Source: an uncultured Fibrobacteraceae bacterium (GTDB taxonomy: Bacteria; Fibrobacterota; Chitinivibrionia; Chitinivibrionales; Chitinispirillaceae). From it: a DNA stretch of 32,000 nt. Both the position numbers and the translations under genes were made by a program. The notes under the pieces are model-generated. The model had not been told where the DNA came from and did not search any database. It saw only the letters and a list, made by a program, of their open reading frames with translations. The DNA is taken from assembly GCA_963735155.1 (NCBI GenBank), contig CAVTJU010000001.1, positions 216,223 to 248,222 on the forward strand. Reading direction: 5' to 3'. Of this stretch, positions 17,263 to 20,607 are shown piece by piece. Every line of letters starts with the position of its first letter. The first letter of the stretch is position 1.

Positions 17263-17631
17263 ATGGATGATTTCATAACTATCTGTAAAGCTCTTTCGGA
17301 TCCAGGGCGCGTTCGTGCACTGCTTGCATTACGTAATGGAGAATTGTGCGTTTGCCAGATCATTGAGCTGCTTGGCCTTGCTCCTTCAACGGTGTCAAAG
17401 CACATGTCGATTCTCAAGCAAGCTGGACTTGTTCTCAGTCGCAAAGAAGAACGTTGGATCTATTATCGATTGATTGAAGAAAAACAAGGTAGCAAAGTAA
17501 CCAGTAACACAATGAAGTGGGTTTATCAAATGTTAGAAAATGATAAGGAGATTTCGCGGGATGCTAAAGCATTATCCAGAATCACTCAAGAGGACCTATT
17601 AAAATTATGCAAAATGCAACGCAACAAATGA
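17263..17631 (+). CDS. arsR: ArsR/SmtB family metalloregulator
   Basis: 122 aa winged helix: ALSDPGRVRALLALRNGELCVCQIIELLGLAPSTVSKHMSILKQAGLVLSRKEERWIYYRL; ELCVC metal-binding motif. Confidence 0.92.
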   Translation: MDDFITICKALSDPGRVRALLALRNGELCVCQIIELLGLAPSTVSKHMSILKQAGLVLSRKEERWIYYRLIEEKQGSKVTSNTMKWVYQMLENDKEISRDAKALSRITQEDLLKLCKMQRNK

Positions 17632-18068
17632 AAATACTCTTTCTTTGTACTGGCAACTCCTGCCGAAGCCAAATGGCTGAGGGATGGGCGAGGTATCTCA
17701 AGAAAGATATCATTGAACCCTATTCTGCAGGAATCGAAACCCATGGGATGAATCCGAACGCCATCAGGGTAATGGCCGAAGCTGGAGTGGACATTTCAAG
17801 TCACCATTCAAAACACATTGATGAATTAAAACATATTCATTTTGATTGGGTCATAACAGTTTGCGACAACGCCAACGAACGTTGTCCGATCTTTCCCGGC
17901 AAGGCAAATCGTTTCCACATCAGTTTTGATGATCCACCAAAACTCGCCGAAAATGCCAAAACTGAGGATGAAGCGCTTTCTCATTACCGGCGAGTGCGTG
18001 ATGAAATCAGAGCATTTGTTGAAAAACTCCCTGAAATCTTGATAAAACCACAAGTGAGCACAGACTAA
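17628..18068 (+). CDS. arsC: Arsenate reductase, thioredoxin-coupled (low-Mr phosphatase fold)
   Basis: MKILFLCTGNSCRSQMAEGWARYL P-loop (CX5R), VCDNANERCPIFPG redox Cys pair, FDDPPKLA. ATG overlaps the arsR TGA (ATGA, 17628-17631). Confidence 0.93.
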   Translation: MKILFLCTGNSCRSQMAEGWARYLKKDIIEPYSAGIETHGMNPNAIRVMAEAGVDISSHHSKHIDELKHIHFDWVITVCDNANERCPIFPGKANRFHISFDDPPKLAENAKTEDEALSHYRRVRDEIRAFVEKLPEILIKPQVSTD

Positions 18069-18090
18069 AAAATGAAGGACATTTCAAATC

Positions 18091-19170
18091 ATGACAAATA
18101 ATAATTCACCTTGTGTCCAAAGCTCAGACGCAAAAACTCATAGTGAATGCGGATTGACCGTGACACCAATTCGCTTAATATCGACAATGACATTCGCCGA
18201 CAGGTATGGCGCAGTTATGTGTCGGATAAGTGACAAGTTTAGAATGAACTACAAAGTTACTCCAGGGCTTTACGAATTGGGTAACCCCGACCAAAATTCT
18301 CCTGTTCTGGTCACTGGAAATTATCATCTAAGCCTGAATGTCCTGCGTTCATCGCTTGGCAAGAGAAATGTATGGATACTCGTCGTCGATACTAAAGGTA
18401 TTAATGTATGGTGCGCCGCAGGGAAAGGCACTTTTTGTACTAATGAGATAGTTAAACAATTATCGGCATGTAACCTCAGTTCAAAAATCTCACACAAAAC
18501 ACTTATTCTACCACAGTTAGGTGCATCGGGTGTTTCTGCTTCAAAGCTGCAAAAGACAAGCGGGTTCAAGGTTAAATTTGGCCCGGTGCGTGCGTCAGAT
18601 CTTCCAGAGTATCTCGACAATAACTACATCGCGAGTCCTGCGATGCGGCGTGTGCAATTTACTTTTGTTGATCGCGCAAAACTCGTACCTATGGAAACCA
18701 TCCCTGCTTTCAAGAAAGTGGGACTTTTTCTGCTCATTACCGCAGTCCTGTTTGGCTTAACTCGCACCGGTATTATTTACAAACAAGCATTAACCGGTGT
18801 ATGGCCGTTTGTAATAGCTGGACTGACCGTTCTTTTTACAGGTACGATTCTTCCTCAATTGTTTTTACCTTTCCTTCCGGGTCGGGCATTCTCGATAAAA
18901 GGTTTTATCACCGGTCTGCTCGGTGCGACTGCAATAATTTGTCTATTGCCAACATACCGAAGTAACCCATTCATCACCGCTTTTTATTTGATTGCCATTC
19001 CTGCATTCAGTTCCTATTTAGCATTCCTTTTTACCGGTTGCAGTACATACACATCGCCATCGGGTGTTAAGGCGGAGTTGAAAATCGCTTTGCCACTCTA
19101 TCTTGTGAGCGCTGCTATATCTGTTGTACTGCTTATACTTGCAATTATTCGCTTCTGGGGGATCTTATGA
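18091..19170 (+). CDS. hgcA: Mercury methylation corrinoid protein HgcA
   Basis: PVLVTGNYHLSLNVLRSSL..NVWILVVDTKGINVWCAAGKGTFCTNEI (cap-helix motif), HKTLILPQLGASGVSASKLQKTSGFKVKFGPVRASDLPEYL, then a multi-TM C-terminal domain with FLPFLPGRAFSIKGFITG. Confidence 0.95.
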   Translation: MTNNNSPCVQSSDAKTHSECGLTVTPIRLISTMTFADRYGAVMCRISDKFRMNYKVTPGLYELGNPDQNSPVLVTGNYHLSLNVLRSSLGKRNVWILVVDTKGINVWCAAGKGTFCTNEIVKQLSACNLSSKISHKTLILPQLGASGVSASKLQKTSGFKVKFGPVRASDLPEYLDNNYIASPAMRRVQFTFVDRAKLVPMETIPAFKKVGLFLLITAVLFGLTRTGIIYKQALTGVWPFVIAGLTVLFTGTILPQLFLPFLPGRAFSIKGFITGLLGATAIICLLPTYRSNPFITAFYLIAIPAFSSYLAFLFTGCSTYTSPSGVKAELKIALPLYLVSAAISVVLLILAIIRFWGIL

Positions 19171-19472
19171 AACATTCGTATATATCCGGTGTGTCAACGC
19201 TAAAGTTTGACGTAATGAAATGTACGGGCTGCGAACGCTGCGTGGAAGTCTGTCCCCATGGTGTCTTTGAAATTCGAAATCATCGCGCACAAATTGTTGC
19301 TCTTGATAATTGCATGGAGTGCGGAGCCTGCGCACAGAACTGTGCCTTTGGTGCATTAACGGTAAAAAGTGGTGTCGGATGCGCTGCCGCGATGATTAAC
19401 GGCTTGATGACCAAGGGTGATCCTGATAAGGGCACCTGTGATTGTGGTGGCGACTCGGGTAGCTGTTGTTGA
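19167..19472 (+). CDS. hgcB: Mercury methylation ferredoxin HgcB
   Basis: Two 4Fe-4S motifs [14 protein letters not shown] and [16 protein letters not shown], conserved [13 protein letters not shown], Cys-rich tail [12 protein letters not shown]. Immediately follows hgcA with a 4-nt overlap. Confidence 0.94.
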
Positions 19473-19494
19473 AACCTCAATAAGGAATAATATC

Positions 19495-20607
19495 ATGGCT
19501 CAAATAGAAGAAAAACGTCTTTCATTTCTCGATAGGAATCTAACCCTTTGGATTTTTATAGCAATGGGGCTTGGGGTTGCAATCGGTTGGCTATTTCCAA
19601 CAGCGTCCGAACTGCTTTCACATATGAGCATAGGTACGACATCAATACCAATCGCTATCGGTTTGATTATTATGATGTACCCACCACTTGCAAAGGTTAA
19701 TTATCGACGCATTGGGGGAGTTTTCTCGGATAAGAAAGCATTATCTTTATCGCTTGTACAAAACTGGGTTGTTGGCCCGCTTATTATGTTCGCACTTGCT
19801 ATCATTTTCCTCCGTGGTCAACCTCATTTAATGACGGGTGTCATAATAATCGGGTTGGCTCGTTGTATCGCAATGGTTATTGTTTGGAATAGCCTTGCAA
19901 AAGGCGACAGCGAATATGCTGCTGCACTGGTTGCATTTAATTCGGTATTTCAAGTGCTTTTTTTTGCAGTGTATGCCTATATCTTTGTGACTGTACTTCC
20001 ACCACTGTTTGGCTTGGCAGGGCAAGTTGTGCATGTCTCAATGAAGAATGTCGCAATAAGCGTGGGGGTTTATCTGGGCATTCCGTTTGGGGCAGGCTTC
20101 CTGACACGTATAATCCTTGAACCAATCAAGGGTGAAGAGTGGTACACCACGAAATTCATGCCGAAAATCGGCCCGGTTGCTTTGATTGCACTCTTATTCA
20201 CGATTCTTGTAATGTTTGTTTACAAAGGCAAAACAATTGTTGCATTGCCGCTCGATGTCGTGCGGGTAGCCTTTCCTCTTTTGATCTATTTTCTCATTAT
20301 GTTTTTCGGGTCTATGTTTGCCACAAAACGGCTAGGTATCAACTATAAAGAAGCAGTCAGTCTTTCTTTTACTGCTGCGAGTAACAATTTCGAACTTGCG
20401 ATTGCAGTTGCTGTTGGAGTATTTGGTATCGCTTCACAGGAAGCCTTCGCAGCTGTTATTGGTCCCCTTATTGAGGTTCCTGTAATGATCGCTTTTGTTA
20501 ATGTTGCTCTTAGAATGAAAAATAAATTTGCGAAAAACGATTTGAAGGCAGATTCATTTTCCAAAAACGCTTCACCAAATTTACGGAAAGGTACTAATCA
20601 TGAGTAG
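19495..20607 (+). CDS. acr3: Arsenite efflux permease ACR3 family
   Basis: [106 protein letters not shown]. Start at ATG 19495. Confidence 0.95.

Follow-up and report, generated by a model that had tools for sequence, protein, structure and literature searches.

Control of hgcAB expression, and the reasons for the existence and spread of this mercury-methylation gene pair, are standing questions in mercury biogeochemistry. In P. mercurii ND132, an ArsR-like regulator of hgcAB responds to As(III), As(V) and S-adenosylhomocysteine (Gionfriddo 2022/2023). Its gene, arsR2, lies upstream of hgcA-hgcB and is co-transcribed with the pair, and As(III)/As(V) increase the expression of hgcAB (Goni-Urriza 2020; Gionfriddo 2022/2023). 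In many putative methylators from diverse lineages, acr3 and arsC directly adjoin hgcAB, and arsR and arsM are close by (McDaniel 2020, mSystems, Fig. 6; PMC7438021). Co-location of hgcAB with arsC, arsB and arsM in metagenome-assembled genomes (MAGs) has also been described, together with the question of whether arsenic shaped the horizontal transfer of hgcAB (Gionfriddo 2022/2023). In rice paddy, ars genes were found on 4 of 35 hgcAB contigs (Zhang 2023; PMC10349881), and arsR has been reported with acr3/arsC at transcribed hgcA loci, hgcA expression being lower where arsR is present (Peterson 2025; PMC11984097). Here we describe a cluster of the form arsR-arsC-hgcA-hgcB-acr3 in a 32,000 nt stretch of DNA (hereafter the window) from an uncultured Fibrobacteraceae bacterium (GenBank contig CAVTJU010000001.1, positions 216,223 to 248,222).

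According to the initial annotation of the window, discussions of hgcAB usually treat the pair as stand-alone. This is out of date, as flanking by arsenic genes has been in the literature since 2020. The association of hgcAB with arsenic genes is thus already published, the novelty of the locus was overstated and the known picture is unchanged. The arsenic-flanked MAG neighbourhoods (McDaniel 2020; Zhang 2023; Peterson 2025) likewise include acr3 and a thioredoxin-type arsC, and a gene for an ArsR-type regulator is close to them. However, these are neighbourhood maps only, and the window adds exact junctions, an operator candidate and comparisons with hgcAB-free operons and with a sister genome. 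Relative to ND132, an ArsR-family repressor gene is found upstream in both, but the ND132 locus lacks arsC and acr3, which are both present in the window, and ArsR2 of ND132 has an atypical four-Cys site (Cys47/49/86/88) whereas the ArsR encoded in the window has the classical alpha-3 C-V-C. Canonical arsR-arsC-acr3 operons have the same three genes in the same order and on the same strand, with an ArsR box at the promoter; in the window, the arsC and acr3 genes are separated by hgcA-hgcB. The operon in the window therefore looks like an arsR-arsC-acr3 operon to which hgcAB has been added. What is new here is the classical C-V-C ArsR, a candidate operator in common with hgcAB-free ars operons, and the comparison of a block present in one genome and absent from another. 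The locus is a particularly clean natural case, as an ArsR of the classical arsenite type stands before hgcAB together with its box, a combination otherwise found before plain arsR-arsC-acr3. Work on arsenic-induced methylmercury formation could draw on its defined candidate operator sequence and on the five genes as a compact construct.

The five genes are listed in Table 1 with the other features of the region. The packing described in the initial annotation was reproduced in full: the genes share one strand, ATGA overlaps are found between arsR and arsC (17628-17631, with the arsC ATG at 17628) and between hgcA and hgcB (19167-19170), and gaps of 22 nt separate the arsC stop at 18068 from the hgcA ATG at 18091 and the hgcB stop at 19472 from the acr3 ATG at 19495. 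Also borne out was the placement of hgcAB, as genes for arsenate reductase and arsenite efflux flank the pair and the gene for an arsenic-type repressor precedes them. A longer open reading frame (ORF) for acr3, starting with GTG at 19417, was rejected as an artefact of the ORF caller, and acr3 begins at the ATG at 19495.

Table 1. Features of the hgcAB-arsenic cluster and its surroundings (positions in the window)
Feature	Position	Strand	Description
arsR	17263-17631	+	ArsR/SmtB repressor; alpha-3 Cys29-Val-Cys31
arsC	17628-18068	+	Arsenate reductase, thioredoxin-coupled, low-molecular-weight phosphatase type; Cys7 P-loop CX5R, Cys79, Cys86
hgcA	18091-19170	+	Corrinoid protein; cap helix NVWCAAGK (residues 105-112), five C-terminal hydrophobic helices
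hgcB	19167-19472	+	2x[4Fe-4S] ferredoxin; Cys72, C-terminal Cys-Cys
acr3	19495-20607	+	Arsenite efflux permease; last ~22 residues without counterpart in relatives
Sigma-70-like promoter candidate	16848-16876	+	TTGACT-17-TATATT; 10/12 consensus matches
Candidate ArsR operator	16872-16895		Perfect palindrome ATATTTCG-N8-CGAAATAT, overlaps -10
AhpD/CMD-like pseudogene	16926-17216	+	Good ribosome-binding site and ATG; frameshifts near 16944-16962 and 17104-17122
arsP relic (ArsP-family permease)	16513-16715	+	C-terminal ~55 residues only; internal stop and frameshift
Strain-specific block	16455-20655		~4.2 kb, whole module inside; right edge between ~20627 and 20655

Families were assigned with curated NCBIfam hidden Markov models, using their equivalog cut-offs, and with Pfam. 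HgcA scored 367.8 bits against NF040863 (cut-off 275), exceeding the equivalog cut-off for HgcA. Its scores were below the cut-off for the HgcAB-like fusion family (199.9 bits; cut-off 285) and far below that for the CdhD/AcsC gamma family (85.5 bits; cut-off 306), membership of which had been set beforehand as the finding that would count against the HgcA assignment. CdhD/AcsC, the large subunit of the corrinoid iron-sulfur protein (PDB 2h9a and 4djd), has a corrinoid-binding domain fold in common with HgcA residues ~54-175. However, its similarity to the HgcA from the window is just E ~1e-12, and it has neither the cap-helix Cys motif nor the transmembrane domain. The cap-helix motif NVWCAAGKGTF noted in the initial annotation is present at residues 105-115, where Cys108 is the cobalt-ligating Cys of the motif, and is invariant across a 14-sequence HgcA alignment. 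In a Kyte-Doolittle scan, the hydrophobic segments of the membrane domain were at residues ~205-227, 236-258, 268-288, 294-315 and 331-355. HgcB scored 114.7 bits against NF040864 (cut-off 99). The two ferredoxin motifs ascribed to it (CX2CX2CX3C) were located at residues 19-29 and 49-59, Cys72 is the equivalent of the conserved Cys73, and a CC pair is found at residues 100-101.

An N-terminal CC/CU motif has been reported for most HgcA (Haft & Gwadz 2022) and was not a defining HgcA feature in Parks 2013. This motif was not found in the HgcA from the window, which has the N-terminus MTNNNSPCVQSSDAKTHSECG. An N-terminal extension containing selenocysteine (the CU form of Haft & Gwadz) was considered and rejected, as the upstream in-frame codons include stops and no Cys-TGA; the in-frame TGA at 18073-18075 is preceded by Lys, not Cys. 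The leader (residues 1-25, 18091-18165) is weakly conserved, and close relatives are without any cysteine there.

ArsR scored 86.6 bits against NF033788 (cut-off 55) and 62.6 bits against PF01022 (HTH_5 winged helix). Its alpha-3 motif is GELCVCQII, and C29 and C31, the equivalents of Cys32 and Cys34, are invariant in 10 clade members. ArsC scored 69.7 bits against PF01451 (LMWPc), consistent with membership of this family, and contains the P-loop C7-TGNSC-R13 as well as Cys79 and Cys86, the equivalents of the Cys82/Cys89 pair. Acr3 scored 419.6 bits against TIGR00832 (cut-off 282.8) and is 370 aa long compared to 346-354 aa in relatives. Its homology to the Acr3 of a related locus, L082, ends at 20538, and the ~22-residue tail is encoded by 20539-20607. 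This tail is near the right junction of the block, at which acr3 may have lost its original stop codon.

Of the promoter-like sites in this area, the best is upstream of the AhpD/CMD-like gene that precedes arsR, and its -35/-10 spacing is kept in the related loci L001, L082 and L084. The palindrome overlapping the -10 occurs once in the window, compared to 0.03 occurrences expected by chance. Conservation of the box, with 0-2 mismatches, extends to 11 related loci with hgcAB (L001, L003, L005, L009, L014, L022 and L082-86), where it precedes arsR or CMD-arsR. An exact-pattern scan of public metagenome contigs recovered the box at 52 loci, and at 36 of them an adjoining arsR homologue is read away from it. 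Most of these 36 are ordinary arsenic operons, at least 12 being plain arsR-(arsC)-acr3, and hgcA was found in just 6. L124 and L142, for example, are arranged box-arsR-arsC-acr3 with gaps of ~40-50 nt. As the box mostly precedes ordinary ars operons, the repressor and box would form a general arsenic-operon control system.

In seven loci of the Fibrobacterota type (L003, L005, L009, L022, L101, L106 and L107), the same ArsR and box are found directly before hgcA-hgcB, and arsC and acr3 are lacking. In these relatives, hgcAB is therefore accompanied by the arsenic-type regulator even without resistance genes.

Within the cluster, 4 terminator-like sites were found against 4.2 expected in shuffled sequences. 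Downstream of acr3, a canonical intrinsic terminator was not found, and AT-rich hairpins are present at 20704-20785, in sequence that is also present in the sister genome described below. A single transcript, repressed by ArsR and induced by arsenite, is plausible, and the co-transcription under arsenic sensing proposed in the initial annotation is well supported at the level of sequence.

Overall, we consider it likely that the cluster is an arsenite-derepressed operon, from which ArsC, HgcA, HgcB and Acr3 are made together, and that a horizontally mobile cassette carries it. The unit would run from the promoter and operator through the broken AhpD-like gene to arsR, arsC, hgcA, hgcB and acr3. 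When arsenite is absent, ArsR dimers would occupy ATATTTCG-N8-CGAAATAT, covering the -10 hexamer and blocking RNA polymerase. Binding of As(III) to Cys29/Cys31 would release ArsR, and all of the downstream genes would then be transcribed together. ArsC would reduce As(V) to As(III) and Acr3 would export the As(III), with HgcA and HgcB made simultaneously. As HgcAB would be made with the products of the ars genes, the capacity for Hg(II) methylation would be tied to arsenic exposure.

A number of observations weigh against this interpretation. The promoter scan used an E. coli-type consensus, which may not be that of the host, and the 19 promoter-like sites found in the region are not a significant enrichment over the 13 +/- 4 found in shuffled sequences. 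The distance from the box to arsR is 367 nt, with a dead gene between. ArsR is without the third ligand of the E. coli R773 type, the equivalent of Cys37 being Ile34. However, two cysteines are enough in R773 ArsR (as cited in Gionfriddo 2022), and Cys116, near the ArsR C-terminus, is conserved and could act as a substitute third ligand. For ArsC, the best family is TIGR02691 (thioredoxin-coupled pI258 type), and the score of 153.3 bits is under the 174.3 cut-off. In ND132, the hgcAB transcript level is no predictor of the methylation rate (Gionfriddo 2022).

Promoter-like matches are also found inside the cluster, at 18076-18105, 18154-18181 and 19469-19496, and the last of these sits right before acr3. 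If used, they would make hgcAB and/or acr3 separate units read from internal promoters, with the palindrome not controlling them, and the dead gene between the box and arsR would fit such an arrangement. However, the internal matches are at chance level, and gaps of no more than 22 nt with overlapping start and stop codons leave hardly any room for regulation. The pairing of box and arsR is conserved in dozens of operons, and the linkage of hgcAB to acr3 has been kept across a divergence at which synonymous substitutions (dS) are saturated. Separate units are, in our opinion, quite improbable.

The extent of the hgcAB-arsenic link was surveyed in 80 species-representative genomes, chosen for the highest HgcA similarity (the best 80 of at least 596 matches). 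The nearest match among these, L002, is 62 % identical to the HgcA from the window. In 11 of the 80 genomes, arsC and/or acr3 is found no more than 6 kb from hgcA. Gene orders differ, and these genomes span at least 6 phyla, the groups represented being Nitrospirota, Fibrobacterota, Bacteroidales, Bacillota, Desulfobacterota and Verrucomicrobiota. One of them, L052 (Bacteroidales), has arsC-hgcA-hgcB-acr3 as in the window. An arsR homologue just upstream of hgcA and on the same strand was found in 14 of the 80. By rough estimate, the chance of an ars gene in a random 12-kb stretch is well under 1 %, and the association of hgcAB with ars genes is therefore real. In a neighbour-joining tree without support values, arsenic-linked loci fall in at least 8 separate places and the clade that includes the window is monophyletic. 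The association has probably arisen repeatedly.

The closest relatives of the island share 73-79 % (HgcA) and 85-89 % (Acr3) identity with the proteins from the window. They are on contigs of ~49-53 % GC, with neighbouring genes unlike those of the window. L084 has the window's order, CMD-arsR-arsC-hgcA-hgcB-acr3, and is beside a DDE transposase. The remaining islands differ in content: L082/83 are arranged arsP-arsF-arsG-...-DGC-Trx-DsbD-CMD-arsR-arsC-two unknown genes-hgcA-hgcB-acr3, L091 is arsR-DGC-CMD-arsC-two unknown genes-hgcA-hgcB-acr3, and L001 is arsR-arsC::hgcA fusion-hgcB-two unknown genes-acr3. Since the relatives carry larger versions of the island, the window would hold a pared-down copy, and the ~4.2-kb cassette would be a cut-down version of larger arsenic/organoarsenical islands. 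The ArsC::HgcA fusion in L001 (1598-3037; JGI sample 3300069939) is in-frame and 479 aa long (P0001), and matches both PF01451 and PF03599. Relative to the window, ~115 nt comprising the 3' end of arsC, the spacer and the first ~22 codons of hgcA are missing. This fusion is known from one contig in one sample.

We note that the two unannotated genes found with hgcAB in the closest relatives (L082:4594-5966, L091:5516-6876 and L001:3380-4747) are absent from the window. They are in either the arsC/hgcA or the hgcB/acr3 interval, and encode a ~215-aa Cys-rich protein and a ~233-aa membrane protein that is weakly ArsG-like (E 3.6e-8). The L082 island opens with genes of organoarsenical type (L082:1-3751). 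The first is a full arsP, and the others encode an ArsF-family protein, ArsG (270.8 bits), thioredoxin and proteins of the DGC-domain, DsbD-like and AhpD/CMD-like kinds. The start of this island resembles the ArsR5-ArsP-ArsE-DGC operon of ND132 (Gionfriddo et al.).

The content of these islands bears on a different explanation, in which HgcAB acts on arsenic here, by corrinoid-dependent methyl transfer to As(III) or in an organoarsenical step, and mercury methylation is a side reaction. That hgcAB is found inside ars operons of varied gene order and in many lineages would fit this, as would the arsP, arsF and arsG genes and the weakly ArsG-like gene beside hgcAB in related islands, the in-frame ArsC::HgcA fusion in one relative, and the lack of the N-terminal CC/CU motif in the HgcA from the window. 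In addition, an ND132 hgcAB deletion strain is more sensitive to As(V) (Gionfriddo 2022). However, in the same work the loss of hgcAB did not significantly lower overall arsenic resistance. HgcA and HgcB score as equivalogs and keep every mercury-methylation motif, genes for thiophilic metal(loid)s can be co-regulated without a common substrate, and arsenic methylation by HgcAB has been shown in no published experiment, nor is it shown here. We therefore regard a role on arsenic as improbable. If HgcAB did serve arsenic detoxification, this would explain the recurrent placement in ars operons beside arsP/arsFG-type genes, the ArsC fusion and the missing CC/CU motif, and responses to arsenic stress would account in part for natural mercury methylation, as a by-product.

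Evidence on the origin of the arsenite-derepressed unit comes from a sister genome. A Lon protease gene is just upstream of the block, and its 95 % identical homologue is on a 267-kb contig from another sample (sister locus L087). In blastn comparison, L087 and the window are colinear on both sides of the block at 86-87 % nucleotide identity. The homology ends at 16454, one base past the Lon stop codon, and restarts at 20656 (by eye, near 20627). The 4.2-kb block corresponds in L087 to 544 nt of unrelated sequence, and no relics of the island were found in this filler. The GC content of the block is 41.1 %, compared to 37.2 % for the rest of the window, and GC content at third codon positions (GC3) is 0.38-0.45 in the five island genes versus 0.30-0.34 in flanking genes. 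That this unit is present in one of two close genomes, and not in the other, is directly relevant to an arsenic influence on the horizontal transfer of hgcAB, about which Gionfriddo et al. asked.

Remnants of two further genes are found at the left of the block. The arsP relic matches Pfam ArsP_1 with E 6.9e-7, over profile positions 239-290 of 294. The AhpD/CMD-like gene was identified as a pseudogene by tblastn and by aligning its DNA with that of L082 and L084, where the CMD gene is intact and encodes 87 aa. In it, a TGA (17029-17031) replaces the codon for the second Cys of CxxC, which is TGT or TGC in relatives. NCBIfam families related to this gene include selenoprotein forms. However, selenocysteine at this TGA was rejected, as no hairpin resembling a selenocysteine insertion sequence was found (minimum free energy -2.9 kcal/mol, worse than shuffled sequences) and the gene has two frameshifts.

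The GC and GC3 values, the arsP relic and the broken AhpD-like gene suggest that the block is of foreign origin. The claim in the initial annotation that the pair travels as part of a metal(loid) module is supported at the sequence level by the colinear sister without the block, the differing composition and the related islands elsewhere. Acquisition in the lineage of the window is favoured over loss in the sister, with reasonable though not full confidence, and the cassette was most likely gained horizontally. Alternatively, the block could be ancestral and deleted in the sister, in which case the window would be no evidence of transfer; this is compatible with the operon model. No integrase or transposase was found at the block junctions, nor were direct or inverted repeats, with only 7-9-nt chance matches seen there, and the GC content of 41 % is much nearer the 37 % of the host than the ~50 % of the closest relatives. 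dS is saturated against all known relatives and no recent donor was identified. The direction of the indel could not be read from the next Lon relative (P0124/L089), which is not syntenic and hence uninformative, and no HgcA homologue was found among 72,556 PLSDB plasmids. However, GC3 is above that of the flanking genes for all five genes, the left end is a truncated gene of foreign type, and related islands are at unrelated sites, one of them (L084) beside a DDE transposase. The relatives of HgcA are Fibrobacterota/Chitinivibrionales-like, whereas Lon is closest to Desulfobacterota, being 63-64 % identical to the Lon of named Desulfobacterota MAGs. An ancestral block is, on this evidence, somewhat unlikely.

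The degraded state of two upstream genes, arsP and CMD, could also indicate that the whole module is decaying and non-functional. However, the five core ORFs are all intact, the catalytic residues are conserved and the ratio of nonsynonymous to synonymous substitutions (dN/dS) is low, and we consider decay very improbable. Compared to related island copies, dN is 0.07-0.34 and dN/dS is at most 0.09 where computable, dS being saturated. The five genes have, by this measure, been under purifying selection.

Elsewhere in the window, two ORFs on the minus strand, 11014-14028 (1004 aa) and 4981-5721 (246 aa), had no Pfam match at E<=1e-5. For the 1004-aa ORF, the sister genome encodes a counterpart of 939 aa. 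A second indel separates the window from L087, with 0.42 kb in the window (10538-10959) corresponding to 1.8 kb in the sister (L087:5100-6903), which includes a 380-aa ORF and a gene for an RDD-domain protein.

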